A DNA stretch of 64,000 nt from an uncultured Roseivirgaceae bacterium (GCA_964551035.1 CAZKBK010000009.1:8662-72661); one strand, 5' to 3'; counted from the stretch's first letter, positions 27,841 to 47,068 are shown. Notes: generated by a model not told the origin, from the sequence alone. Numbers and translations are program-made.

Positions 27841-27841
27841 T

Positions 27842-28198: not shown

Positions 28199-28203
28199 AC
28201 AAC

Positions 28204-29980: not shown

Positions 29981-32900
29981 TGTCCTTCAAAAATATCCTG
30001 ACTATTATGTCGTTCGAGGCCAGGGTGCTTTGGAGAAACTGGTTTTTCAGGATCATCGCCCTGCTCGGCGTGGGCTTCGTCGGCATTTTCAACCTGGCGG
30101 TTTTTTCCGAGCTCGACACGCCCCAATGGCACGTGCTCGCCAACGGATGGATACTCCCCTACGCCAGCCTGCTCATGATCAGTATCCCGCAAGCCGCCGC
30201 GGTCATATTCCTGGCGACCGGCATGATCAAGAAAGACAAAAAGCTTGACACCAATGAAGTCTTCTTCGTAAGGCCGATCACCAACCTCGACTACGTCTTT
30301 GGAAAAGCGCTGGCGCTGTTCACCCTCTTCTTCCTTTTGAACCTGGTGCTGCTTTGCATTCCCTTGATCATCGGCCTGACGAATCCTTCCGCCACCGTCA
30401 CGCCGCTGGCTTTTCTGATCTACCCGTTACTCACGACAGTCCCGGCGATCGTGTTTACCACGGGAATTTCATTCCTTCTCGTTACGGTCATCCGGAATCA
30501 GCCCATTTCCATTGTACTGCTCGTGGGTATTGCCGGCGTTCAACTGATCTACTACTTCGACCAGTTCTCCAATATCCTCGACTTCATGGCATTCCGCCTG
30601 TCGATGCTTGCCTCGGAGATCACCGGTTTCGTGGATATCGGATTTGCCCTATGGCAACGGGGCTTTTACTTGCTCACCGGCATTGCACTACTCTTTATCA
30701 CCGCGTTTCTCCTCGATCGCCTGGCGGGCCACAAGGTGGCGCACAAGGCCACCGCGTTCGTGGGTGTCGCGCTGTTGGCGGTTGCCGCATTCATCATGGT
30801 CAGGCTTTGGGACATGCGTCAGCGCCCGATTACGTTGCGCGAGGAGATGGTTGCCGTGAACGCCACCTGGGCAAACGTGCCCAACATCGATATCGTGTCG
30901 CACGTGATTGATGTAACGTGGTTGGGTGACCAGATCGCCAGCACTTCTGAGATGCGGGTGAGGAATAATACCAACCGGACATTGGATACGATCTACTTTA
31001 CCCTGAACCCGGGCTTAACGGTTGACGAAATGTTGGTTAACGACGCGCCGGTGAAGATCAACCGGGACTTGCAGATCGTGGCTATCGACGACGGCGTGAG
31101 CTTACCTGCCGGCGGCGAACTAACCGTCAGGATGAAATATCGCGGTCCCATCAGGGAGTCAGCCGCCCATTTGGACGTAGATCAGAAGCGTTACGAGTCT
31201 TCTAACGAACTGATCATGTTTTCACTGAAAAAGAAGTATGCATTCCTGGAACCGGATTATGTACTGCTTACCAAAGACGTGCTGTGGTACCCCGATACCC
31301 AGGTGGGCTTCAACCGCACTTCGGCCCGCAGGACCCGGCACAGCTTTGTGGATTTTCGATTGACTGTACACGCGCCAGCGGGTAAGACACCGATCTCCCA
31401 GGGCGAGGTCGTGATCAATGACGGCGTGCATCAGTTCCGACCGGAATATCCCCTGCCGCAAATTTCGCTCGTGATCGGCGACTATGCGAAAAAAGAGATA
31501 ACCGTTGACGGCGTTGACTATGCGGTTTTTCATCGTCCTGAAAATGATTTCTTCGTCCGGCATCTCGACCAACTCGCCGACACCCTGGGTTATCTCATCA
31601 GGGATGTTGCCAATGAATACGAAGATGCGCAAAAGCTCGCCTACCCGTTCAACAGGCTGCAGTTCGTGGAGGTCCCCATTCACTTCACCGCTTACGACAA
31701 GATTTATGATAGCCACCAGGCGTACTTACAACCTGAAACGGTCTTTTGGCCAGAGGAAGGCAGCCACATCAGGCAGTTCGACTTCAGAAGGCAGCTCCGT
31801 GACATGAACCGTCAGGCTGCCCGTACGAACCAGGTGTTGACGGACAAACAAAAGCAGGCGAACGTTTTCAACGACCTCATAAGAAAAGTGTTTACTAAAC
31901 AGATCGGCTCAACGTGGGTATGGGACGGCAGCGATGCCGATCGGGCGGATTATTCCCTCTTCCCCAACTATTACGATTTCAACTCGGGTATCGTCAGCGA
32001 GGATTGGCCTTTGCTGAACCGCAGCATCGCGACCTACCTGAGAAACGACAAGCAAACGCTGAATGACTATTCAAGAAATATCAACGGCATCTCTTTTACG
32101 GAAGAGTGCAACAACCTCATGCGAACGTCTTCCATGAAAGAGATCCTCACCGGGACGGAGTTCAGCAAGATCAGCAAGTCGGTGTCGCTGAAAAGCCAAT
32201 ACCTCTTCGCATACCTGGGCCACATGCTGGGCGAAAGCAACTTTAAGACGTTTCTGTATGACTGGGTGAACAACCATCAACACGAGCTCAATGGCTACCG
32301 TCATTTCCGGGAGGCGATCCGATCCCGATTCCACCTCGATATCGACCCCATTATTCGGGAAGTCTACGCTGAAACATCCCAACCGGCCTTCGAGATCCTC
32401 GACGTTCAGCAATATGAAGTAATGGACCGCGACCGGAAGCGTTATCAGGTGCTTGTCAAAGCAAGAAATTCCGGCGACAGTGACGGCGTGATCGAAGTCA
32501 GGTTCAACACGGGAGAAAGGGCCGCGGATGAAGACTACTATGCCGTAAAGGTGAATGAGGAGGTTGCCCAGGAGGCGCCGGGGAGGCTGGCGGTGATCAA
32601 ACAGGGCGAGACCAGGCTTATTGGTTTTGTCCTGGACGAAAAGCCAAACACGATCACCATCAACACCATAATCTCCAGGAACATACCCTCCTCGATCGTC
32701 ATGTCGGTTGGCGCCCTGTCGAGCCATGATGGCGGTCTTTTGTTTGACGGCGAGCGCGTCATCGCCAACGAACGGGATAACAACCCGTACGAGGTCATCG
32801 TCGACAACGAGGATCCCGGATTCAGCACCTTCAGCCCCATCAAGCCCACCATCTTGAAGGCCTGGCTGGACAGCCGCAATGCGACCGATCAAAAGTATTA

Positions 32901-33312
32901 CGGCAACTGGTCAAGTTCCTACTCCCGGTGGCTGGCGACAACCGGTTCCGGCTTCCATGGCCGCGTAATACGCTCGGCGCATTTCACCCGATCGGGAAAC
33001 GGTGAAAAGATCGCGACATGGGCTCCTGAATTGCCACAAGACGGCTTCTATGACCTTTATGTCTACATGATGGGCAAGAACCAGAATGAATTTCGGGGCG
33101 GCGATGGCGACAGCAGGCAGTTCACCTATCACTATGTAGTCAACAATGCCGACGGCACTGACGATATCCGCTACAACATTTCCAACGCGGAGCCGGGCTG
33201 GAATTACCTCGGCTCATACTATTTCGCTAAAAATGGTAGCAGCGTTTCGCTGACCGACGAATGCGAGCTACGAACGGTGTATGCGGATGCGGTCAAATGG
33301 GTCAGGCAGTAG
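29977..33312 (+). CDS. ABC-2-type permease fused to a large extracytoplasmic M1-aminopeptidase-like domain (catalytic motifs degenerate) and a C-terminal beta-sandwich
   Basis: The start overlaps the upstream stop (ATGA). The first ~290 aa are multi-pass membrane. The soluble part shows the M1-like order YPFNRLQFVEVPIHFTAYDK (GAMEN position), DLIRKVFTKQIG (HEXXH position), SEDWPLLNRSIATYL (WLNEG.A.Y position) and AYLGHMLGESNFKTFLYDWV. The C-terminal ~150 aa (GFYDLYVYMMGKNQ...VYADAVKWVRQ) is beta-sandwich-like. Confidence 0.75.
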   Translation: MMSFKNILTIMSFEARVLWRNWFFRIIALLGVGFVGIFNLAVFSELDTPQWHVLANGWILPYASLLMISIPQAAAVIFLATGMIKKDKKLDTNEVFFVRPITNLDYVFGKALALFTLFFLLNLVLLCIPLIIGLTNPSATVTPLAFLIYPLLTTVPAIVFTTGISFLLVTVIRNQPISIVLLVGIAGVQLIYYFDQFSNILDFMAFRLSMLASEITGFVDIGFALWQRGFYLLTGIALLFITAFLLDRLAGHKVAHKATAFVGVALLAVAAFIMVRLWDMRQRPITLREEMVAVNATWANVPNIDIVSHVIDVTWLGDQIASTSEMRVRNNTNRTLDTIYFTLNPGLTVDEMLVNDAPVKINRDLQIVAIDDGVSLPAGGELTVRMKYRGPIRESAAHLDVDQKRYESSNELIMFSLKKKYAFLEPDYVLLTKDVLWYPDTQVGFNRTSARRTRHSFVDFRLTVHAPAGKTPISQGEVVINDGVHQFRPEYPLPQISLVIGDYAKKEITVDGVDYAVFHRPENDFFVRHLDQLADTLGYLIRDVANEYEDAQKLAYPFNRLQFVEVPIHFTAYDKIYDSHQAYLQPETVFWPEEGSHIRQFDFRRQLRDMNRQAARTNQVLTDKQKQANVFNDLIRKVFTKQIGSTWVWDGSDADRADYSLFPNYYDFNSGIVSEDWPLLNRSIATYLRNDKQTLNDYSRNINGISFTEECNNLMRTSSMKEILTGTEFSKISKSVSLKSQYLFAYLGHMLGESNFKTFLYDWVNNHQHELNGYRHFREAIRSRFHLDIDPIIREVYAETSQPAFEILDVQQYEVMDRDRKRYQVLVKARNSGDSDGVIEVRFNTGERAADEDYYAVKVNEEVAQEAPGRLAVIKQGETRLIGFVLDEKPNTITINTIISRNIPSSIVMSVGALSSHDGGLLFDGERVIANERDNNPYEVIVDNEDPGFSTFSPIKPTILKAWLDSRNATDQKYYGNWSSSYSRWLATTGSGFHGRVIRSAHFTRSGNGEKIATWAPELPQDGFYDLYVYMMGKNQNEFRGGDGDSRQFTYHYVVNNADGTDDIRYNISNAEPGWNYLGSYYFAKNGSSVSLTDECELRTVYADAVKWVRQ

Positions 33313-33478: not shown

Positions 33479-34990
33479 ATGCATATGAGTTTTCGTAAAA
33501 CAATCAACGCAACATCCGGGCAGGCTCCCAGCAATTGGATGGCAGCACTCCTTGTTCTGATAGGCTGCAGTCTGATCACGTCAGGGACCATGGCGCAGCG
33601 CACGCTGAATTTGAGCGAGGCGATCCGGATCGCGCAGGCCAGCAGTCCCAGCATTAAGAAATCGAAATTGAATCTATACGGTAATCAGCGAAGCCTCGAT
33701 GCGCAACGCGCCTCCCTGAAATCGAGATTCGCCCTGGATATCACGCCATTCGACTACAACCGAAACCGCAATTTCAACGACCTCTTTTCTACCTGGAACA
33801 CCAACGAAGACTATAACTCATTCGCTAACTTATCGGTCAGTCAGCCCATTGTGGCTACCGATGGGACCATCTCGCTGGTGAACCGGCTCGGCTACAGGGA
33901 CAACTATTCAGAGTTCCAGGATGTCAGGACGCAAACCTACAGCAACAACCTGTATTTGCAACTGGACCAGCCCATCTTCACCTACAACCGAACGAAGATC
34001 CAGCTCCGGGAATTGGAGCTGAACCTCGAGAATGCCAGGATCAGCAACGCGCTGCAATTGCTGAGCCTCGAACAAAACGTCACCCAATCGTTCTATGCCG
34101 TGTATCAAAGTCAAAACAACCTGGAGATTGCCAGGGACGAATACGAAAACCAAAAGATCAGCTATGAAATCACCAAAAACAAAGTGGATGCCGACCTCCT
34201 GGCAAAGGAAGAACTTTACCAGGCCGAATTAAACCTTGCCACCTCCAGGTCGACATTGGAAAACAATCAGGTGCTGCTTGAGAATGCCGCCGATGATTTC
34301 AAGCTGCTACTCGGAATCCCGCTGACGGAAGCACTCGCCGTCGAAGTGAATGTCGACTTTGTTACCCAGGAGGTGGACCTCAACAAGGCGATTGTTTTTG
34401 CCCTCGAGAACCGAATGGAACTACGGCAGCGCGCGATCGACATTGAACGTTCCCAGTTCGAACTGATCCGCACCAAGGCGTTGAACGAATTCAAAGGCGC
34501 GGTCTCGTTGTCATTGGGCATTTTTGGAGACAACGAACGCGCACCGGACATCTATGAGGTGCCGGCCGTGAATCCGCGCGTGGCGATATCCTTTAACATA
34601 CCCATTTTCGACTGGGGCGAAAACAGGGCGAGGATGGACGCCGCCAACGCAAGCCTCCAGATCAGGCAGGTAGACCTGGAAGTGGAGAAGAATGAGATCG
34701 TCATCAATATCAGGAAAGTCTATAGAAACCTCCAGAACCTTGAAAACCAAATACGGATCGCCGAGCAGAATGTCAAAAACGCCGAATTGACGTATGACAT
34801 CAACCTCGAACGCTACAAAAACGGAGACCTTACCAGCATCGACCTCAACCAGTTTCAAAGCCAGCTTTCCGAAAAGAAAAGCACGCTGGCGGATGCCCTG
34901 ATCAACTACAAAGTTGAATTGCTGAACCTTAAGATCCTCTCCCTCTATGATTTTGAGCATCAACAACCACTCATCATTCCATACAACTAA
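33479..34990 (+). CDS. TolC-family outer-membrane efflux protein
   Basis: 503 aa with a signal peptide (ALLVLIGCSLITSGTMAQ). It has the two-fold OEP repeat architecture with long coiled-coil segments (LNLSEAIRIAQASSPSIKKSKLNL; LERYKNGDLTSIDLNQFQSQL). Confidence 0.9.
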   Translation: MHMSFRKTINATSGQAPSNWMAALLVLIGCSLITSGTMAQRTLNLSEAIRIAQASSPSIKKSKLNLYGNQRSLDAQRASLKSRFALDITPFDYNRNRNFNDLFSTWNTNEDYNSFANLSVSQPIVATDGTISLVNRLGYRDNYSEFQDVRTQTYSNNLYLQLDQPIFTYNRTKIQLRELELNLENARISNALQLLSLEQNVTQSFYAVYQSQNNLEIARDEYENQKISYEITKNKVDADLLAKEELYQAELNLATSRSTLENNQVLLENAADDFKLLLGIPLTEALAVEVNVDFVTQEVDLNKAIVFALENRMELRQRAIDIERSQFELIRTKALNEFKGAVSLSLGIFGDNERAPDIYEVPAVNPRVAISFNIPIFDWGENRARMDAANASLQIRQVDLEVEKNEIVINIRKVYRNLQNLENQIRIAEQNVKNAELTYDINLERYKNGDLTSIDLNQFQSQLSEKKSTLADALINYKVELLNLKILSLYDFEHQQPLIIPYN

Positions 34991-35016
34991 TCTTCCAATT
35001 GCAAAAACATATCAAT

Positions 35017-36075
35017 ATGAAAAAACTGAAATACGGGATCCTTCCACTGCTAGCCATGATCGCCTTCTCCTCGTGCAGTCCCGAAGACTCCAGCATTAAG
35101 ACAGAAATAAAGATCCCTGTATCGGTTGTCAGTATCAAGCCGCAGAGCATTTCCCGGTTTATCGAGACAACGGGGACGGTGTATTCTTCGAAGGAAGGTC
35201 TGTTGAAGTTCGAACTGGGCGGCATCTACAGGCTCCAGCGAAACCCGGCTACCGGAAGACCATTCGCCCTCGGCGACGTCGTGAAAGCCGGCCAGGTGTT
35301 GATCCGGCTCGAAGACCGCGAGTTCGAGAATAGCCTCCAGGTGGAAGGCAAGAAGCTTAACCTTGAACTGGCGGAGGACAACCTCCGAAAACAAAAGTCG
35401 CTGTATGACAAGGGTGGCGTCACGCAGACCGAATTGAAAAACGCGTCCATCGAATATGTATCGGCAAAGTACGCCTATGAGAATGCCGAAATACAAATGG
35501 CTAAGCTGGCCGTGAAGGCTCCTTTTGATGGCGTTATCGTCGAACTCCCCTATCGCACCGACGGTGTAAGGATCGACCAGGGTCAGGAACTGGTCAAGGT
35601 GATGCAATACGACAAGCTGCTGATGGACGTCATGCTTCCCGAAAAGCATTTGCATGAAGTGACGGTCGACCAGGTCGTGCAGGTCTCCAGCTATAACGTG
35701 ACGCGGGATACAGTATATGGGAAGATCAGCCAGATCTCCCCGGTTATCAATCCCGATACCAGGACCTTCAAGAGCGTGCTTCAAATCAACAATGAAGAAC
35801 GGCTGTTGCGTCCGGGAATGTTTATCAAGGCATTCATCCTTTCGGAAAAGCACGACAGCACGATCGTGGTCCCTAAGGAGACGGTCATCTCCCGGCAGGA
35901 CGGCAAAGTCGTTTTCACCGTGGAAAATGGAATTGCCACGGAAAAGAAGATCACCACCGGACTTGAAAACATGGATGTGATAGAGGTCGTCGGCGGGCTG
36001 AAGGTCAACGACCGGCTGGTTGTTTCCGGATTCGAGACACTGAGGAACAAATCCAAAGTCAGCATCATTCAATAA
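35017..36075 (+). CDS. Efflux periplasmic adaptor (membrane fusion protein, HlyD/AcrA family), lipoprotein
   Basis: MKKLKYGILPLLAMIAFSSCS is a lipobox. Lipoyl/hairpin motifs: VKAGQVLIRLEDREFENSLQ and LAVKAPFDGVIVELP. The ORF opens at 34999. Confidence 0.9.
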   Translation: MKKLKYGILPLLAMIAFSSCSPEDSSIKTEIKIPVSVVSIKPQSISRFIETTGTVYSSKEGLLKFELGGIYRLQRNPATGRPFALGDVVKAGQVLIRLEDREFENSLQVEGKKLNLELAEDNLRKQKSLYDKGGVTQTELKNASIEYVSAKYAYENAEIQMAKLAVKAPFDGVIVELPYRTDGVRIDQGQELVKVMQYDKLLMDVMLPEKHLHEVTVDQVVQVSSYNVTRDTVYGKISQISPVINPDTRTFKSVLQINNEERLLRPGMFIKAFILSEKHDSTIVVPKETVISRQDGKVVFTVENGIATEKKITTGLENMDVIEVVGGLKVNDRLVVSGFETLRNKSKVSIIQ

Positions 36076-36101: not shown

Positions 36102-39100
36102 GTGAAAAAGATAGTCTCGTTAGCGGTCTCCTACCCTGTTTCGATCCTGATGTTGGTGTTGGCTGTTATCCTGCTGGGTTCGATATCGTTCGGGAAGCTG
36201 GGCATCGAGCTGGTGCCGGAACTGAAGAACCCCACGTTGTTCGTGGAGCTAAAAGTCGGCATCAAGCCTCCGTCGGAAGTAGAAAAGCAATTCATTGAAT
36301 CCATCGAGTCCATTGCCATCAGGCAAAACGGCGCCGTCGAAGTGAGTTCCATGAGTCAGACGGGTTATGGCCGCGTCACGGTGCAGTACGACTGGGGCAA
36401 GGATATGGACGAAGCGTTCCTGGATCTTCAGAAATCGCTCTCGGCATTTTCAATGAACGAAGAGGTCGATGAATTCGTCATCTCGCAATTCGATCCCAAT
36501 GCCGCGCCGATCATGACCTTGGGAATCTATAATCCGGCATCCAATGACACGGACGCGCTGCGAAGGATAGCGGAGAACAACTTCAGAAACGAATTCATCA
36601 AACTGCCGGGCATCGCCGAAGTGCGCCTGTCCGGCGAGCAGGAGAAAGAGGTGGTGGTGGAAACGGACCCCGACCTGCTGGCCTCGTTCGGCCTTACGGT
36701 GAACGACCTGGTAACAAAGATCCAGAGTTACAACCGAAGTGTCTCCGGCGGCTTTATAGAAGACCTGGGACGTAAGTATGTCATCAAAGGATTGGGAATC
36801 ATCAACACCCCCGACGACATGGAAGAACTGGTGGTTGGCTACACCACCCGCGCAAATACCACCTCCAACCCGGGATCCGTATCCCTGACCGGAGAAATTG
36901 CGCCGGCTGCCAATAGTCAGGTGTCGGTATCGGATCAGGTACCCATCCTCCTTCGTGAAGTTGCAACGATACGGGTATTGAACAAAGAAGCCAGCACCAT
37001 TGTCAGGGTGAACCAGCAACGAAGCGTGGGAATGTCGATCTACAAAGAAACGAACTACAATACCGTCAATGCAGTCGATGAACTGATGACGGCCCTGGAG
37101 GAGCAGCGGAAAACGGTTCCCGGCTATGAGGTTGTCGTCATTCAGAATCAGGGCAGGTTTATTCAGGGCGCCATTGATGAAGTGAAAGAAGCGGGTCTGT
37201 ACGGCGCACTTTTCGCGATGATCGTCCTGTTCCTTTTCCTGCGGAGAATAGGATCGACCCTGATCGTCAGCATCATTATTCCGATTTCCGTCATCGCGAC
37301 CTTCAACCTGATGTATTTCAACGGGCTCACGCTGAATGTGATGACGCTGGGCGGACTGGCCTTGAGTGCTGGAATGCTCGTCGACATCGCCATCGTGGTG
37401 GTAGAGAATATTTTCCGCAGACGCGAAGAGGGACTGAGCGTCGTGGACGCTGCCGTAGTGGGCACAAGCGAAGTAAGCGGCGCCATCACGGCCTCGACGC
37501 TGACCACGATCGTTGTATTCCTTCCCATCGTCTACTTACAAGGTCCATCCGGAGAACTTTTTAAAGACCAGGCGTGGACGGTCGCCTTTTCACAGATGGC
37601 TTCCCTGGTTGTGGCCATCCTGGTGATCCCCATGCTCTTCGTCCAATTCTTTCGAAAGGATAAAGCTGTACGCAAGGAAACGCCGGTAAGGTTTCAAGCG
37701 TACCGTTCCCTCCTGGAAAAGGTCCTGAACCATAAGGCTGTCTTCATCGCAGCGTCTCTGGTAATGATGTTGGGGGCCTATTTGCTTTTGCCTGTAGTCG
37801 GCAGCGAGTATTTGCCGCAAGCCGGCACACGCGCCATCTCTGTTGACCTGACGATGAACAACGGCACGGCGCTTTTGAGAACTTCAGCAGCGGTGGGCCA
37901 AATCGAAAGCCAGCTCATGCAGCTTTTCGACGGGCAGCTGGAGAAAACCTATTCGCATATTGGTGCACAGCAAACCCAGTCCGGTATCAGCAATGACAAC
38001 GCTTTCCATGAAAACACGGCTAACATCAAGCTCATTTTCAGGGAAGATGTCGAATTGGACATGGCCGCGGCTACGTCGAGGCTATCCGCATACTTTGAAG
38101 CGTTGCCCGGCATTGAGGCTACGTTCTCCAATGACGAGAGTTACCTCTATGCCGTAAAAGGCAGCGAGGAAATGCCGCTGATCATCGAAATAAGCGGTCC
38201 TGAGTTCGAAAGCCTCAAGCCGCTTTCCGATTCAGTTATGCTCGCCCTGGCTGCCAATGAACACGTCTATGAACCCGTGTCCGATCTTGAAGAAGGAGTG
38301 CCGCAAGTAAAAGTCGATGTTGACAAGTACAGGGCGGGATTGCTGAACCTCTCCATTGACGACGTGATCGTTCAGGTTAAAGACCGCCTGGAGGGCAAGG
38401 ATGCCGGCGCCATCGAACGCGATGGAGAGATGCAAACCATAAGCATAAAGGTTCCGGAACTTTCGCTGGCGGGACTGGAGAACCTGCGTATAAAGAGTGG
38501 CGAGCGTGAATTTCCATTAAGTGAGATCGCAAGTGTGACCGTGGAGCACGCCAGCAATTCCATTTACCGCAAGAATCAAACAAGGACAGTCTCCATCGGC
38601 GCGCGGGTGAACCCGGACATCCCGTATGACAAAGTGATCAAGTCCGTGGAAGCATCCCTGATGACGCTATCGGTGCCACCCCAGTATAAAATACGGGTAG
38701 CCGGCCAGGAGTTGCGGCGCAAGGAGTCTCTTAAGAACCTGAGTTTCGCGCTGGTACTCTCGGTTGTATTGGTGTACATGGTCCTTGCGTCACAGTTCGA
38801 ATCGCTCCTCCATCCTTTTACGATCTTGTTGACGATACCATTCGCCACCGTTGGTGCGATACTCGCATTCTTCGTCCTTGGGATGCCCTTAAACATGATG
38901 GGATTCATCGGAATCATTCTCCTCGGGGGAATTGCCGTGAACAACTCGATCATCCTCGTCGATTGCATCACGCAAAACAGGATGAGCGGAATGGCTGTCA
39001 AAGAAGCCATACTTGACGCCGGCCAGCGCCGGTTGCGACCCATATTGATGACCACCCTGACGACCATCCTGGGCCTCCTTCCGTTGACTTTGGGATTCGG

Positions 39101-39269
39101 AGAAAGCGCCGCATTAAGAACGCCCATCGCCATTGCCGTGATCGGAGGATTGACCACGTCTACCCTACTGACGCTGATCATCATTCCCTGCTACTACGAG
39201 AGCATTGAAAATATTGTTGAATGGTTGAGGGGTAGGCGAAAAGTGAAAATCGAAGTTCAACATGGCTAA
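36102..39269 (+). CDS. RND efflux permease (AcrB/MdtB-like), paralog 1
   Basis: 1055 aa with a GTG start. It has the classical 12-TM plus two large periplasmic loop layout. TM4 is GMLVDIAIVVVENIFR and TM10 is GGIAVNNSIILVDCI. Its stop overlaps the start of the next RND gene by 8 nt. Confidence 0.95.
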   Translation: MKKIVSLAVSYPVSILMLVLAVILLGSISFGKLGIELVPELKNPTLFVELKVGIKPPSEVEKQFIESIESIAIRQNGAVEVSSMSQTGYGRVTVQYDWGKDMDEAFLDLQKSLSAFSMNEEVDEFVISQFDPNAAPIMTLGIYNPASNDTDALRRIAENNFRNEFIKLPGIAEVRLSGEQEKEVVVETDPDLLASFGLTVNDLVTKIQSYNRSVSGGFIEDLGRKYVIKGLGIINTPDDMEELVVGYTTRANTTSNPGSVSLTGEIAPAANSQVSVSDQVPILLREVATIRVLNKEASTIVRVNQQRSVGMSIYKETNYNTVNAVDELMTALEEQRKTVPGYEVVVIQNQGRFIQGAIDEVKEAGLYGALFAMIVLFLFLRRIGSTLIVSIIIPISVIATFNLMYFNGLTLNVMTLGGLALSAGMLVDIAIVVVENIFRRREEGLSVVDAAVVGTSEVSGAITASTLTTIVVFLPIVYLQGPSGELFKDQAWTVAFSQMASLVVAILVIPMLFVQFFRKDKAVRKETPVRFQAYRSLLEKVLNHKAVFIAASLVMMLGAYLLLPVVGSEYLPQAGTRAISVDLTMNNGTALLRTSAAVGQIESQLMQLFDGQLEKTYSHIGAQQTQSGISNDNAFHENTANIKLIFREDVELDMAAATSRLSAYFEALPGIEATFSNDESYLYAVKGSEEMPLIIEISGPEFESLKPLSDSVMLALAANEHVYEPVSDLEEGVPQVKVDVDKYRAGLLNLSIDDVIVQVKDRLEGKDAGAIERDGEMQTISIKVPELSLAGLENLRIKSGEREFPLSEIASVTVEHASNSIYRKNQTRTVSIGARVNPDIPYDKVIKSVEASLMTLSVPPQYKIRVAGQELRRKESLKNLSFALVLSVVLVYMVLASQFESLLHPFTILLTIPFATVGAILAFFVLGMPLNMMGFIGIILLGGIAVNNSIILVDCITQNRMSGMAVKEAILDAGQRRLRPILMTTLTTILGLLPLTLGFGESAALRTPIAIAVIGGLTTSTLLTLIIIPCYYESIENIVEWLRGRRKVKIEVQHG

Positions 39270-42200
39270 GAACAGTCTGTTACATACCATCATTAGAAGG
39301 AAGGTCCTCGTATCGATGTTGTTCATCGGCCTGACGGTGATGGGCTACATCTCCTACAACAAGCTTCCCGTGGAGTTGTTCCCCAATGTGGAACTGCCGA
39401 TCCTGATCGTTCATGTAAGCCCGACGACGGAAGTCGATCCGAAGTACATGGAACGTCAGGCAATCGTACCGTTGGAGGGCGCCATCAGCACGCTTGAAGG
39501 AGTCGCCGAGATCACCGCGAATGCGGATAGCCAGCAGGGCATGATCTTCATATCCTTCCAGCAAGGGGTGAACATCAAATACGCTTACCTCAAGCTTGAA
39601 CAGAAAGTGGGCGCCATTAAGTCAAGCCTGGCGCCCGAATTCCTGGTCAACATTATCAAGATCGACACGGAGGAGTTCACCAACGCCTTCATGGATCTAC
39701 AGGTCCTCGGCAGCGGTGGCGTGGACCGCGTGCGGAATGTCACCGACCAGTATATCACCGACCGGTTGACCGAGATCGATGGTATTGGCGGCGCCGAAGT
39801 GTTTGGTGGTCGCCAAAAAACCGTCGAGATCATCATGCATGACGCCGTTTGCGAGGCCAATGGCATAACGCCGAATACCATTAGCAACGTCCTGTCGCAA
39901 AACTCGAACAAAAGCGCTTTTGCTGGCCAGGTAGAAATGGATGGGCGGAAAGTATTCGTGAACGTAACCGCCGAACTGAAGGACATCAAGAACATTCAAA
40001 GCCTCGTGGTATCGGACAAAGGACCGCTGCGCCTGAGTGATGTTGCCGACGTGTTCTTCGGCGTCAAGGAGCAAACCACCCTGAGCCGGGTCAATGGAAA
40101 AGACGCCGTCTCCATCCGACTCTCGAAAGACCCACAAGCCAACCTGATCGCATTGTCGGAAAGGACGCTGGCGTCGATCGATGCCATCAACGAAGACCTC
40201 GCCCCACTCGATGTCAGGATCGTGGTCCAAAGCAACCAGGCCGAGACCATGTCAAAGAATATCGACCAGATCAAAAACCTGGCCGTGACCGGAGGACTGT
40301 TGGCCGTATTTGTGCTGTGGATCTTCCTCCGGCGCGTAAAGGTCATTTTAAGCATCGCCCTGTCCATCCCGGTTTCCGTTTACGCCGCTTTCAACTTCTT
40401 TTACGCCTACGACATCTCGATCAACAGCCTCACCCTGATCGGCATGGCACTGGCCATCGGCATGCTGGTAGATAACAGTGTTGTCGTGATCGAAAATATT
40501 TATCGTCACCTGGTGGACAAGAAAAAAGCCGAAGAGGCAGTCGTCACCGGGACGAAAGAGGTGATGCGTTCGGTGATTGCCGCGACGCTCACAACCGTAA
40601 CCGTATTCCTTCCTTTTATCTTCTCCTCCAACTTCCTGATCACCCTCATCGGAACCCATATCGGCGTTTCGATCATTGCAACCTTGCTCGTGTCGCTCGT
40701 GGTGGCCCTCGTGTTGATTCCGATGCTGGCGTATGCCGCCATCGGCAGGAATGACCACCAGGCGCCCTTGATCAAAAATGCTTCCATCCGCCAGCGGACC
40801 ATCCAGATGTACATGGTTTTTCTGAAGTCGTGTTTCCGGAGGCCGATGTTTACCGTTACCGGCGGATTGGTGTTGTTTTTTGTCAGCATCGGCCTGGGCC
40901 TTGTTGTGAGCCTGGCCAGTGTGGAGGAAGTGGAGACCACCGAGATGAATCTGTTTGTCACCCTTCCACAGGGCGCGACGCTTGAAGCAACAGACATCAG
41001 GACCCGGGCGGTCGAAGAAAAGGTGATGAAAATACCCGTGATTGAAAAAGTCATAAGCCAGGTCTCGGAAGGTGAAGCGGTACTCACCGTCAAACTTGTC
41101 GAGGGATTCAAAGACCTGGACACGATATCGGTGGTGGATGTACGCAATCAACTTTCCGGCATCTCCGACGATTTCCAGGACCTGGATATTTCACTGGATA
41201 AACCACCGGCACAAGGCGGCGGACAAAGCGGCGCCGGCAACGCTGCCCAGAACGATTTCCAACGTATGCTCGGAATCGGCACAGCCTCCGAGCGCATCGT
41301 GATCAAGGGTGAGGACTTTGAATTGATGCAGACCATTGCGCAAGACATCAACACCATCGTTGGCGGCCTGCAGGCCGTTTCCCAAAGTACGGTAAACATC
41401 AGCCCGGAACGTCCCGAGGCGCATCTTGTATTCGACCAGCAGCGAATGAGCGAAAATCACATCACGCTCCAAAACGTAGCCGTTGCGCTCAATGACTTTC
41501 AGCCCGCTTTCACCTCCGGCGCCACGTTCATCAGCGGCGGCGAGGAATACGAAATCACCATCCGCACGCAAAAGCGGATCGATACCAGGGCGAAGGAAAT
41601 GAGCGACCTCCGTGAGATGCCCGTCACCAGCACAACGGGCGCGACCCACGCACTCTCCGACATCGGCACAGCGATCTATTCATCCGGCGAAAGCACCATC
41701 ACCCGCCAGAACCAGGAGAAGCGAATTGAAATTACCTATAGCTTCATCGATGAGGTATTGAAATCCGAATCGTTGCTCGAAGCTTCCCGCCTGGAGATCG
41801 ACCAGATTGTGAGCGGTGTAAACATACCATCGGGAATGGTGGTGGAGGTCATCCACGATGAAGGCCTCTATGATGATTTCTACTTTTTCATCTTCGCCGC
41901 CATCGTGATCATATTGATGATCCTGGCCGCCGTATTCGAATCCCTGTACTTGCCCTTTGTAATCATCTTTTGCATTCCCCTTGCGGCCATAGGTTCATTC
42001 CTGAGCCTTGTCCTGACGGGCAATTCCATACTCAGCGCCAACACATTGATCGGGTTCTTGATCCTGCTCGGCGTGGTGGTGAACAATGGCATCATCCTGA
42101 TCGACTATTCCCGCATCCTGCGGCGGCAAGGTTACACCCGGTACCGCGCGCTCATGATGAGCGGCATCTCCCGGATCCGGCCCATTCTGATTACGTCGAT

Positions 42201-43992
42201 CACAACCATCATCGCCATGCTGCCGCTCGCACTCGGGGAAGCGGAGTACGTCGTCAGCATAGGGCAACCCTTCGCGGTAACCGTGATGGGCGGCCTCGCG
42301 TTCGCCACGATACTTACCCTGTTCTATATTCCGACCATGAGCGCCGGTCTGGAAAGTGTCCTGCATTGGTTCCGGAACCTGAGGCCCGCAGTCAAGGCAA
42401 CACAGATCGGGCTCATGATCATGGTCGGCGCGTTCATTTCCACGGAGGTGGAAGGACTGGTCTGGCAAATGATCGCCTACATCGCCGCCATCATCCTCAT
42501 CCCGGGCGGCACCCACTTCATCATGTCGTCGTTGCGGCAGGCGAATGCCAGGATGGTGGCCCCGGATGAGGCGATGCACATTGAAATCCGGAACCTCACC
42601 AAAGTATACGGCAGGGACAAGCGATGGATCAGGGAGTGGAAAGGAAACAGGCGCCTCTTCGACGCGCGCGGCGAAGCGCCCGTAACGATGAAGGCGCTTC
42701 TCCAGGAGCTCGTCTGGCAGGGCGCGTTGGGCGCCTTCCTGGCCTACTTTGTCTACTTCTTCCTCGACAAAGCATTCTGGCAATTGTTCTTCATGATCGC
42801 TTTGCACGCGCTCCTGCTGTCCCTGTTCGCCGACTTCGCCAAACTTGTGCGCGGCAAACAAAAGCTCGTGACGGCTGTCCAAGCCTTGCTGTACTGGGGA
42901 TTCCCAACGCTAAGCGCCATCTACCTTTACACCGATATCCAAATCAAAGCGCTGGGCGTCATTCTGATCGTGCTTTGGTTTGCGGGCCTGTTGCTTGTAC
43001 GCGCGTCGCAGCGGCTCAGCGAGACACCGGTGGATGTCGATGCGATCACGGGCCGTTTTAAGAGGATCCGGAAGCTGTATCTTAGGATTCTGCTTTCGAT
43101 CCCGTTTGTAAAACCCAGGAAAGCACCCTTCAAGGCCCTGAAGGGCGTGAGCCTCACCATTGAGCAGGGGATGTTCGGACTCCTGGGGCCCAACGGCGCC
43201 GGCAAGACCACGCTCATGCGGATCCTTTGTGGCATCCTGGACCAAAGCTACGGCAAGATCTGGATCAATGGTCATGATACAACCTTACGCCGGGAAGAAC
43301 TGCAAGGCCTTATCGGATACCTGCCCCAGGCCTTTGGCACTTACGAGAACATGACGCCTTATGAATTCCTGGACTACCAGGCCATCCTGAGAAAGATCAC
43401 CAACAAGGACGAAAGGCAGGATAGGGTACAATATGTTTTAAAGGCGGTCCATATGGATGAGCACCAGCACAAAAAGATCGGTTCCTTCTCCGGCGGCATG
43501 AAGCAGCGCATTGGCATTGCGCAGATCTTGCTGCATCTACCGAAGATACTGGTGGTGGACGAACCTACGGCGGGCCTCGATCCATTGGAGCGTATCCGAT
43601 TCCGCAACCTCCTGGTGGAACTCAGCCGGGAACGGATCGTCGTGTTCTCCACACACATCATCGAAGACATCGCCAGCAGCTGTAACAAGCTGGCGGTACT
43701 CATCTCCGGCAATATTGAATACATGGGCAGCCCTGCCACCATGGCCGAACTGGCCAGCGAAAAGGTGTGGGAATTTCATGTAACACCCGATGAATTTGAA
43801 GCTGAGAAAGACAACTACCTGATCGTTCACCATATGCGGGAAGGCGACCTGGTACGCGTAAAGTGCTTGTCGGACACGCTGCCCAGGCTGAACGCCGTCC
43901 AGGTGCGCGCCAACCTGGAAGACGCTTACCTGTGGCTGATGCAAAGTAAATCCAGAAAAAAACATGAAGAGCTCTCTGCTGCTGTTGTATAG
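39262..43992 (+). CDS. RND efflux permease (paralog 2) fused in frame to extra TM helices and a C-terminal ABC-transporter ATP-binding domain
   Basis: A single 1576-codon frame. Residues 1-~1035 form a complete AcrB-like RND (TM4 GMLVDNSVVVIENIYR; TM10 GVVVNNGIILIDYS). Two extra hydrophobic helices follow. From M1105 (nt 42574) it reads IEIRNLTKVYG, then a ~165-aa 4-helix insertion, then FKALKGVSLTIEQGMFGLLGPNGAGKTT (Walker A, nt 43186-43209), Q-loop GYLPQ, signature FSGGMKQRIGIAQIL, Walker B ILVVDEPTAGLD and H-loop STHII. Confidence 0.85.
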   Translation: MAKNSLLHTIIRRKVLVSMLFIGLTVMGYISYNKLPVELFPNVELPILIVHVSPTTEVDPKYMERQAIVPLEGAISTLEGVAEITANADSQQGMIFISFQQGVNIKYAYLKLEQKVGAIKSSLAPEFLVNIIKIDTEEFTNAFMDLQVLGSGGVDRVRNVTDQYITDRLTEIDGIGGAEVFGGRQKTVEIIMHDAVCEANGITPNTISNVLSQNSNKSAFAGQVEMDGRKVFVNVTAELKDIKNIQSLVVSDKGPLRLSDVADVFFGVKEQTTLSRVNGKDAVSIRLSKDPQANLIALSERTLASIDAINEDLAPLDVRIVVQSNQAETMSKNIDQIKNLAVTGGLLAVFVLWIFLRRVKVILSIALSIPVSVYAAFNFFYAYDISINSLTLIGMALAIGMLVDNSVVVIENIYRHLVDKKKAEEAVVTGTKEVMRSVIAATLTTVTVFLPFIFSSNFLITLIGTHIGVSIIATLLVSLVVALVLIPMLAYAAIGRNDHQAPLIKNASIRQRTIQMYMVFLKSCFRRPMFTVTGGLVLFFVSIGLGLVVSLASVEEVETTEMNLFVTLPQGATLEATDIRTRAVEEKVMKIPVIEKVISQVSEGEAVLTVKLVEGFKDLDTISVVDVRNQLSGISDDFQDLDISLDKPPAQGGGQSGAGNAAQNDFQRMLGIGTASERIVIKGEDFELMQTIAQDINTIVGGLQAVSQSTVNISPERPEAHLVFDQQRMSENHITLQNVAVALNDFQPAFTSGATFISGGEEYEITIRTQKRIDTRAKEMSDLREMPVTSTTGATHALSDIGTAIYSSGESTITRQNQEKRIEITYSFIDEVLKSESLLEASRLEIDQIVSGVNIPSGMVVEVIHDEGLYDDFYFFIFAAIVIILMILAAVFESLYLPFVIIFCIPLAAIGSFLSLVLTGNSILSANTLIGFLILLGVVVNNGIILIDYSRILRRQGYTRYRALMMSGISRIRPILITSITTIIAMLPLALGEAEYVVSIGQPFAVTVMGGLAFATILTLFYIPTMSAGLESVLHWFRNLRPAVKATQIGLMIMVGAFISTEVEGLVWQMIAYIAAIILIPGGTHFIMSSLRQANARMVAPDEAMHIEIRNLTKVYGRDKRWIREWKGNRRLFDARGEAPVTMKALLQELVWQGALGAFLAYFVYFFLDKAFWQLFFMIALHALLLSLFADFAKLVRGKQKLVTAVQALLYWGFPTLSAIYLYTDIQIKALGVILIVLWFAGLLLVRASQRLSETPVDVDAITGRFKRIRKLYLRILLSIPFVKPRKAPFKALKGVSLTIEQGMFGLLGPNGAGKTTLMRILCGILDQSYGKIWINGHDTTLRREELQGLIGYLPQAFGTYENMTPYEFLDYQAILRKITNKDERQDRVQYVLKAVHMDEHQHKKIGSFSGGMKQRIGIAQILLHLPKILVVDEPTAGLDPLERIRFRNLLVELSRERIVVFSTHIIEDIASSCNKLAVLISGNIEYMGSPATMAELASEKVWEFHVTPDEFEAEKDNYLIVHHMREGDLVRVKCLSDTLPRLNAVQVRANLEDAYLWLMQSKSRKKHEELSAAVV

Positions 43993-44665
43993 GCTTACGA
44001 CCTACAATGTAAAGGTCATCTTTGGGAACAAGTTTGTCTACTTCGTGGTGGCGGCATTCCTGTTCTTTGGGTTCATCATCACCGTAGCTATTTTCGACGA
44101 CCCCGATTTCGACGAGGCGGTCATTTATGGCTTCCTGGTATTCCCGGGGCTGTTGCTCATTTTTTATCCAATGGCCTATGGCATCCAGAACGACGATGAT
44201 GCCAGGATGCTCGAAACTATTTTTGGAATACCCAACTACCGGTACAAGGTGTGGCTCGTGCGTTTCGTCCTCACCATCGGTATTGCCGCGGTGATCTTGT
44301 GGGTGCTCGCCCACATTGCCAACCTGACCCTCTACCGGTTCAATATCATGCCCATGCTTGGACAAGTGCTCTTCCCGATCACGTTCCTCTCTTCACTGGC
44401 GTTTATGCTGTCGACGCTTATTAAAAATGGCAACGGCACCGCCATCGTGCTCGTGGTTGTCGCATTCATCTTTTTTGTCTTCGCCGATCCCCTGGAGTAC
44501 AGTGTCTACAACGTCTTCCTCAATCCATTCTCGGAACCCCGCGAGATGAGCGAATTCGTCTGGCTCACGATCATCTACAAAAACAGGCTTTACCTGATGG
44601 TGCTCAGTGTACTTAGTCTATTGTATGGTATGTACAACCTGCAGTTCAGGGAAAAGTTCGTCTGA
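43964..44665 (+). CDS. 6-TM ABC-2-like membrane protein, probable permease partner of the fused NBD
   Basis: 233 aa with six hydrophobic helices. It overlaps the 3' end of the fusion gene by 29 nt. Confidence 0.65.
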   Translation: MKSSLLLLYRLTTYNVKVIFGNKFVYFVVAAFLFFGFIITVAIFDDPDFDEAVIYGFLVFPGLLLIFYPMAYGIQNDDDARMLETIFGIPNYRYKVWLVRFVLTIGIAAVILWVLAHIANLTLYRFNIMPMLGQVLFPITFLSSLAFMLSTLIKNGNGTAIVLVVVAFIFFVFADPLEYSVYNVFLNPFSEPREMSEFVWLTIIYKNRLYLMVLSVLSLLYGMYNLQFREKFV

Positions 44666-44877: not shown

Positions 44878-45528
44878 ATGTCAACTCCCGCACCAGATGC
44901 CCTGTTACCGACGCTGCAAAAGACCGTCAATGTGCTGGCCGGTCATTTCGACCAAATTCCCCCTGAACGCAAGGCAGTGATCCGGCAATTGGCCCGCTTT
45001 ATCGAATCAAGAATAAGTTCAGGTCAACCTGCATTATTGAATTTTATTTGTACCCACAATTCGAGGAGAAGCCACATCGCCCAGATATGGGCCCAAGCCG
45101 CCGCGCTTTACTACGGATTAGATAACGTCCGGACCTATTCCGGCGGGACGGAAGCCACCGCTTTCAACTCCGCAGCGGTCACGGCAATGCAGGCGGCAGG
45201 GTTCGGCATCTCCATGAAAAGCCAGGGGCCGAATCCGATCTATGAAGTCCGGTTCTCGACAGCGGCTCCCACCCTTTCGGTCTTTTCGAAGGCGTACGAT
45301 CACCCTTCGAACCCCGGAAAGGATTTCGCAGCCATCATGACCTGTTCGCATGCGGATCAAAATTGCCCCATCATCGCCGGCAGTGCGGCAAGGATCGCGT
45401 TGCCTTACGACGATCCCAAAGATTTTGATAACACCCCTCAAGCGCCTGCCAAATACATGGAACGGGTCCACCAGATTGGCAGGGAAATTCTGTTTGCGTG
45501 CTCCATCGTGTCAAAACAAAAATTCTAG
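44878..45528 (+). CDS. Low-molecular-weight phosphatase-family protein (ArsC-type arsenate reductase / protein-tyrosine phosphatase)
   Basis: CX5R(S) P-loop FICTHNSRRSHIAQIWA. Distal Cys pair context MTCSHADQNCPI and the Asp motif YDDPKDFD. Confidence 0.8.
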   Translation: MSTPAPDALLPTLQKTVNVLAGHFDQIPPERKAVIRQLARFIESRISSGQPALLNFICTHNSRRSHIAQIWAQAAALYYGLDNVRTYSGGTEATAFNSAAVTAMQAAGFGISMKSQGPNPIYEVRFSTAAPTLSVFSKAYDHPSNPGKDFAAIMTCSHADQNCPIIAGSAARIALPYDDPKDFDNTPQAPAKYMERVHQIGREILFACSIVSKQKF

Positions 45529-45597: not shown

Positions 45598-47040
45598 TTA
45601 AACGCCCTGGCTGACCAGCGCAAACTGGAACTGCGGCCTTCCGCGTTCACCATTTTGCGTCAGCGCCGTGAACTTCAGCTTGTAAATGTTTCCTGCGGAA
45701 TCTTTGATCACGTAAAAGCGGTCTTCCTTGAGAGCAGGTCCCGATCCCGGGCCCCCGCCGGACCTCCAACTGGAACCGATATTGATCTGACTGGTGCCAA
45801 AGGTGACCCCCGCCAGGTCGGCCTCATCAAAGTCTTCGTACGTGCCGGCGGTCGCGGTAAGGAGTTCCGCCGTTTCAGTATCGAAGCGATTCTGGATCAC
45901 CACATCGTTAAAGACGTAGGGCACCGTGAGGCCAGGACCAAAGGCGGTGGTATTCGTAAACACGGTGAAGGCGATATCCCACTTTTCCTTTTTCGGCTCA
46001 ATTTCAACCACACCGGTTTCAAATTTCACGTAGTTGAAGAGGAATTCTTCGTCCCTCGTAATATCGATGGATGTGAAACTGGTGGCGTCGATATCTGCAT
46101 GCTGCAAGGTGTAGTTGTCGCCGTTTCTGATTATACGGACCTTCTTCCAGCCCCGTGGTGTGCCGTCCGGGTGCGCTCCGCGGTTCACGATGAACACGTT
46201 GTTGTCGGACGCCGCTGCCGCGATTTCCGCAATGGCCGTGGCGGACAGGTCTCCGGCGGGATCGTCGATCCAGGACGTCGCCTCCGACACCCATGCCGGC
46301 GGCGGGCCGGAGGTGATCGCGGCAAATACCGCATCCGTGGAAAGCTGTTGCCCCCACCCTGTCGTATCCTCCGCGGTAACGGCGTTAAGATCATTCTTGT
46401 CAAGCGCCCTGGCCATCATCGACGAAGCCGAATTAAGAATCACGCGAAATTCACCCGCTGCCATATAGAAGCCAAGGTCCCAGTCACTCCGATGGACGGA
46501 AGTCTGACGGTTCGCGCTAAGGTCGATAAACACCTTGTTCGGTTGTTCCTGGCCTCCGACATTCGGATCCATCGTCCCCTCGTCGGCAAGTATTTCAGAA
46601 AAACTCACCACGAGCGCACTTCTTTCCCCCGGCACGAGGTCATTGCCCACCGTTGCCAATGTAAATGCGATCGTTTCGTCTCCATCGAGCAGGACATCCT
46701 CCTCCTTGTTGATGTCAAATGAAACCTGCGTTGCTCCCTTCGGCACCGGAATCACGAGCGAATTTCCATCCATGGCCGGGCTGGTCGTGAACTCCGTCTC
46801 GTAGCTGACTCCAACCAATTCCGCCGTAAGGCTAATCTCCGTATCCGTGGACGCTTCCCGCGAAAAAGGGATGTTGACCGTCAGGGTTTGTTCATCCGAA
46901 GCAAAGCCGAGTTCTCCAGATTCAAACTGTACCAGGTTGTCGGGCAGTGGCGGATCTTCATCGCAGCCTGCCAGCATCACGAAGGCAGCGAACGCAAAAA
47001 AAATCGACCAGGGTTTAAATGGAGAAGTTTTGGATTTCAT
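45598..47040 (-). CDS. HmuY-like heme-binding lipoprotein with N-terminal Ig/Calx-like domain
   Basis: Start at the ATG at 47040 (MKSKTSPFKPWSIFFAFAAFVMLAGCDED, lipobox). The C-terminal ~330 aa has the HmuY-like pattern (SDWDLGFYMAAGEFRVILN; KWDIAFTVF; IYKLKFTAL). It is the last gene of a heme-uptake operon, immediately after the TonB-dependent receptor. Confidence 0.65.
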   Translation of the reverse strand: MKSKTSPFKPWSIFFAFAAFVMLAGCDEDPPLPDNLVQFESGELGFASDEQTLTVNIPFSREASTDTEISLTAELVGVSYETEFTTSPAMDGNSLVIPVPKGATQVSFDINKEEDVLLDGDETIAFTLATVGNDLVPGERSALVVSFSEILADEGTMDPNVGGQEQPNKVFIDLSANRQTSVHRSDWDLGFYMAAGEFRVILNSASSMMARALDKNDLNAVTAEDTTGWGQQLSTDAVFAAITSGPPPAWVSEATSWIDDPAGDLSATAIAEIAAAASDNNVFIVNRGAHPDGTPRGWKKVRIIRNGDNYTLQHADIDATSFTSIDITRDEEFLFNYVKFETGVVEIEPKKEKWDIAFTVFTNTTAFGPGLTVPYVFNDVVIQNRFDTETAELLTATAGTYEDFDEADLAGVTFGTSQINIGSSWRSGGGPGSGPALKEDRFYVIKDSAGNIYKLKFTALTQNGERGRPQFQFALVSQGV

Positions 47041-47068
47041 GGTAAGCATGGATTTTATGAGGAACATG

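Follow-up and report, generated by a model that had tools for sequence, protein, structure and literature searches.

Results

An RND permease and an ABC ATPase in one chain

We have investigated a fused transporter gene carried by a 64,000-nt stretch of DNA from an uncultured Roseivirgaceae bacterium (GCA_964551035.1, CAZKBK010000009.1:8662-72661); the whole stretch is referred to as the window and all coordinates are counted from its first nucleotide. An original prediction, made by reading the sequence alone, had described a 1576-codon frame in which a complete resistance-nodulation-division (RND) permease is continued by the nucleotide-binding domain (NBD) of an ATP-binding cassette (ABC) transporter. 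The gene, RND2::NBD, lies on the plus strand at 39262..43992, starts with ATG and is translated without a stop into 1576 aa. Pfam, the check suggested with the prediction, recognises both domains on the single chain, ACR_tran at residues 8-1026 (E 4.5e-151; 505 bits, cut-off 28; profile positions 3-1016 of 1021) and ABC_tran at residues 1293-1437 (E 1.3e-29; 104 bits, cut-off 25), and the open frame with its two domains thus stands as described. The permease domain (aa 1-1030, 39262..42351) aligns with MdtB and CmeB and combines a full-length profile match with 12 transmembrane (TM) helices, visible as hydropathy peaks. It is followed by the linker helices TM13 and TM14 (aa ~1042-1095, 42385..42546), detected by hydropathy, in an AlphaFold2 model and in the ortholog alignment, and the exit of the linker carries a conserved 'PG.T.F...SLR.A'. 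The remainder of the chain, likewise encoded on the plus strand, consists of a short segment with the first NBD strand, β1, and the A-loop Tyr1116 (aa 1105-1117, 42574..42612), a membrane insertion (aa 1118-1290, 42613..43131), and the NBD core (aa 1291-1500) with a C-terminal domain (aa 1501-1560), the latter two at 43132..43941.

Every catalytic motif quoted in the original prediction was located in the core: Walker A GPNGAGKT at residues 1309-1316 (nt 43186-43209), the Q-loop at 1353-1358, the signature FSGGMKQR at 1409-1416, Walker B plus its glutamate, ILVVDEPT, at 1429-1436 with the D-loop at 1437-1440, and the H-loop STHII at 1463-1467. Across 52 aligned sequences there is no variation in any catalytic element, from the A-loop Tyr and the Lys of Walker A through the Q-loop and signature to the Asp-Glu of Walker B, the D-loop and the His of the H-loop, and from this invariance the fused ATPase looks catalytically competent. 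The same number of sequences supplied the alignment for an AlphaFold2 model of residues 1027-1576 (mean pLDDT 78.9), in which the folds closest to the NBD plus C-terminal domain, as found with Foldseek, are TM_1403 (E 6e-16, TM-score 0.72 on the target), NosF, LptB and the ABCA/ABCG NBDs. The fused protein reaches the cut-off of no NCBIfam model; its best NBD models, GldA and DrrA, both remain under their cut-offs.

The ATPase domain is divided by a membrane insertion

The NBD begins at M1105. Pairwise alignment with a free-standing NBD encoded in the same window identifies MHIEIRNLTKVYG (residues 1105-1117, nt 42574-42612) as the counterpart of the strand that opens that protein and of its A-loop Tyr; the alignment is then interrupted by ~170 residues and continues from ALKGVSLTIEQGMFGLLGPNGAGKT. 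In the AlphaFold2 model strand β1 occupies residues 1107-1114 and is followed by an amphipathic helix (1121-1135), four long hydrophobic helices also predicted by hydropathy (1143-1167, 1171-1195, 1200-1225 and 1229-1254, together aa ~1143-1254, nt 42688-43023) and a basic helix (1267-1279). I1107, L1112, K1114 and Y1116 are invariant in the 52 sequences, and insertion length is conserved in the orthologs, with a gap fraction of <=0.01.

The original prediction had placed two extra helices after TM12 and a full NBD behind them. Both helices are real, as hydropathy and AlphaFold2 agree on 1042-1062 and 1066-1095, but four more lie within the NBD and the number of additional TM helices is 2+4 = 6. 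Similarly, the motif set is complete but the ATPase is not one contiguous soluble domain, β1 and the A-loop being separated from β2 and Walker A by ~170 residues. With regard to the argument that an even number of added helices returns the chain to the cytoplasm, the loop charges satisfy the positive-inside rule for the 2+4 topology and place both β1 and the NBD core in the cytoplasm; at the linker they fit a hairpin that exits the cytoplasm and re-enters it. The loop charges together with this layout therefore indicate an ATP site built from segments that flank a membrane insertion.

An insertion at this site is also the point from which a regulatory role might be argued, the NBD sensing ATP/ADP or a ligand and gating the RND permease without performing transport work. 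The β1-β2 loop is a known site of regulatory insertions, for example in CFTR NBD1, and the C-terminal domain resembles the regulatory domains of NosF and TM_1403. However, pure sensors often degenerate at catalytic residues, all of which, the Glu of Walker B and the His of the H-loop among them, are invariant here, and a second NBD and a conserved partner permease accompany the fused gene. A sensor function is thus very unlikely.

The fusion is conserved and under selection

Joining of neighbouring genes by a sequencing or assembly error, or by loss of a stop codon, in this contig alone would produce the same reading frame. Two observations are compatible with such an artefact: an in-frame ATG at 42574 opens the first NBD strand, and error-prone long-read assemblies do break these genes. 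An NCBI protein 100% identical to the fused protein nevertheless exists, and a search with the full-length query recovered at least 120 clusters, 1516-1585 aa in length, with identities of 75-87% and a coverage of 96-100%. These full-length matches include Chryseotalea sanaruensis, Fulvivirga ligni, Marivirga harenae, Xanthovirga, Imperialibacter and Marinoscillum; isolate genomes are represented by Chryseotalea, Fulvivirga and Marivirga, with the F. ligni gene on a 6.5-Mb contig. Among named organisms, those most closely related are Chryseotalea, Chryseosolibacter and metagenome-assembled genomes (MAGs) of Cytophagales. A scan of GTDB species genomes detected the C-terminal module in Marivirga sericea, M. 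tractuosa, Prolixibacter bellariivorans, Draconibacterium mangrovi and Maribellus maritimus, in Bacteroides sp. 224, Parabacteroides massiliensis, Proteiniphilum and Rikenellaceae, and in Calditrichaceae and Latescibacterota MAGs.

At the level of individual loci, an open frame of 1565-1616 aa is present in 30 of the 31 that are not cut by a contig end, the exception being a frameshifted long-read MAG (L034). Three phyla are represented, with loci from Cytophagales, Bacteroidales, Calditrichaceae and Latescibacterota, so that homologs are fused through the junction, not invariably encoded as separate genes, and the architecture search put forward with the prediction has returned both full-length clusters and a broad spread. 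Across the window sequence and 30 orthologs, the junction (residues 1031-1288) has a gap fraction of 0.00-0.01 while identity falls to 22-44%. Between two Marivirga species dN/dS is 0.050 for the linker and 0.057 for the insertion, compared with 0.019 for the RND domain and 0.012 for the NBD, and the linker is thus under purifying selection.

Initiation at the ATG at 42574, yielding a separate NBD, was considered and rejected as a conserved option, as this Met is replaced by Ile in 23/31 orthologous sequences. A second candidate, a population of half-size homologs, arose from a query with the C-terminal 550 residues, which returned many PF00873 + PF00005 proteins, all <1000 aa. These were rejected as fragments from contig ends or frameshifts, the full-length query having given full-length clusters. 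Combined, the full-length clusters, the open frames, the indel-free junction and purifying selection bear out the earlier argument against a chance or assembly-generated fusion. We therefore regard RND2::NBD as a genuine, selected single polypeptide, a probability of about 0.95 applying to its identity and architecture, and an artefact confined to this contig as improbable in the extreme.

Two side observations concern the same genes. The RND genes of L001 and L002 are broken into 3-7 fragments and the frame of L034 is interrupted, all resembling uncorrected frameshifts; such frameshifts inflate the count of 'partial' RND-ABC proteins in databases and hide the full architecture from searches started with the NBD. 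In addition, the fused genes of M. sericea (L004) and M. tractuosa (L005) are 91.7% identical in nucleotide sequence, and the longest run without a mismatch between them (148 nt) covers exactly β1 and the amphipathic helix, at gene nt 3346-3493 or Marivirga aa ~1116-1165. RNA structure prediction at the corresponding part of the window (~42560-42710) gave no unusual fold (z = 0.21), and the run may reflect chance, recombination or constraint at the nucleotide level.

Long and short forms of the junction

The RND part was used for an exhaustive HMMER search of 1.84 billion representatives clustered at 50% identity. Down to ~30% identity its nearest relatives are almost all ~1550-1600 aa in length, RND proteins of 1020-1050 aa appearing only below this level. 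Two forms of junction occur. In the long form, to which the window protein belongs, 328-370 residues separate the TM11 Arg from Walker A and the extra TM helices are present. The short form (P0271, P0276, P0283, P0370, P0371 and P0383) shows 0-1 hydrophobic peak in the junction, and the distance from the TM11 Arg motif to Walker A is 174-258 residues in the four members in which it is measurable (P0271, P0370, P0371 and P0383). In P0371 a soluble β1-β2 loop of ~45 residues occupies the place of the membrane insertion in the long form.

In a neighbour-joining, midpoint-rooted tree of RND domains, which carries no support values, all fused forms group in one clade, and ~100 truly unfused RND proteins lie outside it. 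Apparently 'unfused' members within the clade are truncated sequences or P0265, in which the Walker A pattern had been missed. The tree and the two forms point to one ancient fusion event, followed by elaboration of the junction.

Four further representatives (P0381, P0388, P0349 and P0322) carry other C-terminal additions, as RND + OEP (1425-1517 aa) or RND + DeoR-type helix-turn-helix (1347 aa) frames. These may be real fusions or read-through in gene calling.

The fusion gene belongs to a conserved cassette

RND2::NBD is the sixth of seven plus-strand genes with intergenic gaps, in order, of -4, 166, 8, 26, -8 and -29 nt. The first (29090..29980) encodes the free-standing ABC-2-type ATPase of 296 aa (ABC_tran E 8.6e-31), with canonical motifs, DrrA and GldA as nearest NCBIfam models and a 4-nt overlap with the next gene. 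It is 40% identical to the fused NBD over 273 residues. The original prediction had called the two NBDs clear paralogs, which is valid at the level of the subfamily but not beyond it, as unrelated ABC-2-type NBDs of other phyla are equally similar (40-47%). The second gene (29977..33312) encodes a large permease of 1111 aa with ~7 N-terminal TM helices, ABC-2-like in character, and an extracytoplasmic part of ~830 aa. TM peaks occur at residues 26-277, with a weak ABC2_membrane_4 match (E 1.2e-3), and the extracytoplasmic part contains a weak match to Peptidase_M1 (E 8e-3) and ends in Golvesin_C (E 6e-12). HExxH and GxMEN motifs are absent from the M1-like stretch of the window protein and of three homologs. 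Peptidase activity is consequently not proposed; judged by these sequences, the M1-like domain is probably non-catalytic and perhaps serves in binding or docking.

The outer-membrane factor (OMF) is a TolC-like protein of 503 aa at 33479..34990 (OEP E 1.2e-42; TolC family in NCBIfam) and the periplasmic adaptor, or membrane fusion protein (MFP), has 358 aa and is encoded at 34999..36075 (HlyD_D23 E 5.8e-23; TIGR01730 RND_mfp, 200 bits, cut-off 94.9). The MFP gene is conserved across loci, as is the position of the OEP gene with the exception of the Latescibacterota locus L036 and of L087. An RND permease is thus encoded alongside both of its customary partners. The unfused RND1 (1055 aa, 36102..39269; ACR_tran E 1.4e-199) has MdtB (9lyq_B) as closest solved structure, overlaps RND2 by 8 nt and is found in all loci, and in partial loci (L003, L006, L007 and L037) it matches the RND2 region at 27-36% identity by tblastn. 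The cassette is closed by a small permease of 233 aa (43964..44665).

By tblastn over 35 loci, the order large protein, OEP, MFP, RND1, RND2::NBD, small protein is retained nearly everywhere, a homolog of the large permease standing upstream of OEP or MFP in >30 loci. The free NBD again comes first in loci with enough upstream flank, L085 (51% identity) and L087 (30%). A short-form locus, L083, is arranged as MFP, free NBD, 267-aa ABC-2 permease, RND, 902-aa protein, RND::NBD, OEP, the 902-aa protein comprising six N-terminal TM helices and a large external domain. Retention of the same parts under a different gene order is the strongest available argument that these parts work together.

This bears on the alternative that two independent pumps are merely co-expressed and that the fusion serves only stoichiometry or anchoring of the NBD. 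Operons often mix transporters, NBD-membrane-protein fusions are common among ABC systems, and each module looks complete alone. In opposition to this stand a monophyletic fusion spread over at least 3 phyla, a linker dN/dS of ~0.05 and the co-inheritance of the same seven parts in two gene orders, and we consider independent pumps distinctly improbable.

Scans for sigma-70 promoters and intrinsic terminators over 28-46 kb gave counts at the level expected by chance, Bacteroidota promoters being outside the model of the tool. Directly upstream of the cassette, a second ABC-2-like set (26235..28884, +) begins with an NBD at 26235..27065 (ABC_tran E 3e-23; 28-31% identity to both cassette NBDs), continues with an overlapping 261-aa 6-TM protein without Pfam match (27055..27840) and closes with a 226-aa single-TM protein (28204..28884). 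Downstream are a 216-aa protein with weak LMWPc/ArsC-like similarity (44878..45528, +) and a 489-aa HmuY-domain protein (45598..47067, -; E 2.3e-23). A 375-aa plus-strand open reading frame that overlaps the HmuY gene has no family match and is probably spurious.

The small permease is a divergent ABC-2-type candidate

The prediction had also noted a 6-TM, ABC-2-like gene overlapping the 3' end of RND2::NBD by 29 nt. The overlap is exactly as stated, and the gene, present downstream of the fused gene in essentially all loci, is likely to be translationally coupled to it. Several lines of evidence, each of them weak, are consistent with the ABC-2-like assignment. Neither Pfam nor NCBIfam recognises the 233-aa protein itself, and each of the 4315 clusters of its family bears the annotation 'hypothetical protein'. 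Several of 30 diverse orthologs show weak ABC2_membrane_2/_3/_4 similarity (best E 5.9e-6). The Pfam-annotated ABC-2 permease of L083 aligns with the family profile in hhalign over 176 columns (E 2e-4, probability 46%), across the E..TLE.L...P..R motif. An AlphaFold2 model, for which close homologs alone were supplied and which has a pLDDT of only 58, predicts an N-terminal amphipathic helix and six TM helices. In Foldseek the best-ranking matches of this model are without exception type-V permeases: ABCG5/8, NosY (TM-score 0.5-0.6), ABCG2, ABCG25 and Wzm. A sequence-profile comparison of the small permease with the PDB gave no meaningful match. These lines are jointly consistent with a divergent ABC-2-type permease. 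Taken with the fold and sequence affinities of the NBD, the adjacent permease suggests that the ATPase belongs to an ABC-2/type-V-like module with its own permease.

Relay residues characterise the RND subfamily, not the fusion

The proton relay of AcrB consists of D407/D408 in TM4, K940 in TM10 and R971 in TM11. Alignment of the fused RND domain to MdtB, which like AcrB has D-D and K, shows a different set (TM4 and TM10 segments at 40462-40479 and 42073-42090), D404-N405, N941-N942 and R973, and RND1 has D-I, N-N and R at these positions. In an alignment of ~130 RND representatives, D-N...N...R is found in 27/28 fused proteins and also in 76 unfused relatives of ~1030-1050 aa, D-D...K being found in 6; the RND domain thus matches its unfused relatives at the key positions of TM4, TM10 and TM11. 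The idea that ATP has replaced a broken proton relay was rejected as evidence on this ground. The D-N...N state, which most members show whether fused or not, marks an RND subfamily rather than the fusion, and 'proton-driven', as the original prediction had it, is an assumption for the whole subfamily. We know of no study of the ion-coupling chemistry of these proteins.

These residues are relevant to a further alternative, in which the NBD cycle, transmitted through TM13-18, drives or gates the periplasmic cycling of the RND permease and so replaces or supplements ion flux, with the role of stator or accessory left to the ABC-2 permeases. The chain offers several features that would suit it. 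A covalent tether and six extra helices lie beside TM12, the TM insertion is situated exactly between the A-loop Tyr and Walker A such that movement of the helices could affect the ATP site or be brought about by it, and both RND paralogs lack equivalents of AcrB D408 and K940. MacB and NosDFY are ABC ATPases that power periplasmic work without transmembrane transport and provide precedents. However, the 76 unfused relatives with D-N...N give no sign that ATP has replaced ion coupling; the short forms are fused without extra TM helices, so that intramembrane force was not the ancestral reason for fusing; and an NBD acting on the RND permease has no need of the strictly conserved ABC-2 permease partner. 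An ATP-driven or ATP-assisted RND permease is therefore unlikely.

Discussion

RND2::NBD and its neighbours are most readily accommodated by a cassette that would build one envelope-spanning exporter with two engines in series. The ABC-2, type-V-like module would use ATP to move a substrate, probably amphipathic or lipid-like, from the cytoplasm or the inner leaflet. An RND1/RND2 heterotrimer, driven by an ion gradient like its unfused relatives, would receive this substrate on the periplasmic side and expel it via MFP and OEP. In this arrangement the ABC module would be held against the RND TM domain by its covalent tether together with the six additional helices, for stoichiometric assembly and hand-over. 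RND pumps load substrate from the periplasm or the outer leaflet, and SecDF, an ion-driven member of the RND superfamily, is described in PMC8277102 as acting periplasmically, downstream of the ATP-driven SecA step. The series mechanism fits both this mode of loading and the SecA/SecDF precedent, and we assign it a probability of about 0.4.

Several points weigh against this series mechanism. That the ABC-2 permeases associate physically with the RND trimer is inferred from gene linkage alone, and ion coupling, as noted above, is an assumption for the subfamily. The fold matches of the small permease are weak (E 0.06-0.5) and derive from the low-confidence model, and the RND-domain tree lacks support values. 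A four-TM insertion between A-loop and Walker A would also fit a direct mechanical or regulatory link. Both cassette NBDs are fully canonical and so do not discriminate between heterodimer and homodimer, and no biosynthetic genes are consistently linked to the cassette in the loci examined.

A more speculative extension of the series mechanism concerns symmetry. The presence of two distinct NBDs and two distinct permeases suggests that the ABC module may be a heterodimer, composed of fused plus free NBD and small plus large permease. Such a heterodimer could dock through a single RND2::NBD on a 2:1 RND1:RND2 trimer, as in MdtB2C, and this single tether would reconcile the two-fold symmetry of ABC transporters with the three-fold symmetry of RND pumps. 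A dual-energised exporter in which ATP hydrolysis and ion flux are coupled through a heterodimeric ABC-2 module docked on a 2:1 RND trimer, with the four-helix insertion as coupling element, is conceivable but doubtful.

Tripartite pumps are taught as either ion-driven (RND and the major facilitator superfamily, MFS) or ATP-driven (ABC), and the fusion links both covalently. Thousands of sequence clusters contain the hybrid, among them those of Bacteroides and Parabacteroides genomes and of the cultivable Marivirga, Prolixibacter, Draconibacterium and Fulvivirga. A membrane insertion inside the ABC ATPase fold is unprecedented. If the modules cooperate, it becomes testable by what route substrates that are made in or enter the cytoplasm arrive at RND pumps, which load from the periplasm, how an ABC dimer of two-fold symmetry mates with a three-fold RND trimer and whether one transporter couples ATP and ion gradients; should the dual-energised reading be true, this would be the first known dual-energised trans-envelope exporter. 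In addition, >4000 'hypothetical' 233-aa proteins gain a function-linked context.

The original prediction knew of no characterised protein combining both engines, and our literature search agrees. It found no description of an RND-ABC polypeptide, although one may exist elsewhere, for example in TCDB or InterPro architecture tables; the terms 'RND-ABC' and 'ABC-RND' are absent from the literature searched, and the architecture is not mentioned in the part consulted of a 2021 Chem Rev review on tripartite pumps. Automated annotation has encountered it: JGI names the gene 'multidrug efflux pump subunit AcrB/ABC-type multidrug transport system ATPase subunit', and current pipelines name it only 'efflux RND transporter permease subunit', hiding the ATPase. 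The family is abundant and auto-annotated in public databases but appears to be uncharacterised.

Among known systems, the cassette resembles MdtABC/MuxABC-type pumps (E. coli MdtB2C) in having one MFP followed by two tandem, overlapping RND genes plus an OMF, and 9lyq_B, MdtB, is the best solved-structure match for RND2 as it is for RND1. It differs in the six extra TM helices and the ABC ATPase of RND2, in relay residues (D-N/D-I...N compared with D-D...K), in the addition of two ABC-2 permeases and a free NBD, and in scores far from the NCBIfam equivalogs, the window RND proteins reaching 251-346 bits where the cut-offs for MdtB and MdtC are 1584 and 1774.

MacAB-TolC, DevBCA and YbhGFSR likewise bring ABC energy to an MFP/OMF setting, and YbhFSR-type systems pair ABC-2 permeases with an MFP. 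Unlike the window cassette, these ABC-type tripartite pumps have no RND permease in the pump. MacB itself has an N-terminal NBD and four TM helices with a periplasmic domain between TM1 and TM2; in the fused protein the NBD is C-terminal to the RND domain, and no cassette protein matches FtsX or MacB_PCD.

The type-V/ABC-2 exporters (NosDFY, Wzm-Wzt, TarGH, ABCG and ABCA) share the fold of the fused NBD with its C-terminal domain, the amphipathic helix plus six TM helices predicted for the small permease and the order of NBD followed by an overlapping putative permease, and the periplasmic domain of the large permease recalls NosD as the partner of NosY. In contrast to these exporters, the NBD of RND2::NBD is interrupted by four TM helices and fused to an RND permease, the cassette permeases lie under Pfam thresholds, and two different NBDs accompany two different permeases. 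Neither MdtABC nor MacAB-TolC/YbhGFSR nor NosDFY contains an RND-NBD polypeptide or a TM-split NBD.

SecDF with SecYEG-SecA offers a likeness in principle, two energy sources acting in series with the RND-superfamily part working on the periplasmic side (PMC8277102). In that system separate proteins without a covalent link handle a protein cargo, and a duct through the outer membrane is absent. For the divided ATPase itself, a comparison is offered by CFTR NBD1, whose regulatory insertion between β1 and β2 is ~30 residues long, soluble and disordered. The insertion in the fused protein appears to use the same insertion-tolerant site of the ABC fold, but extends over ~170 residues and crosses the membrane with four TM helices.

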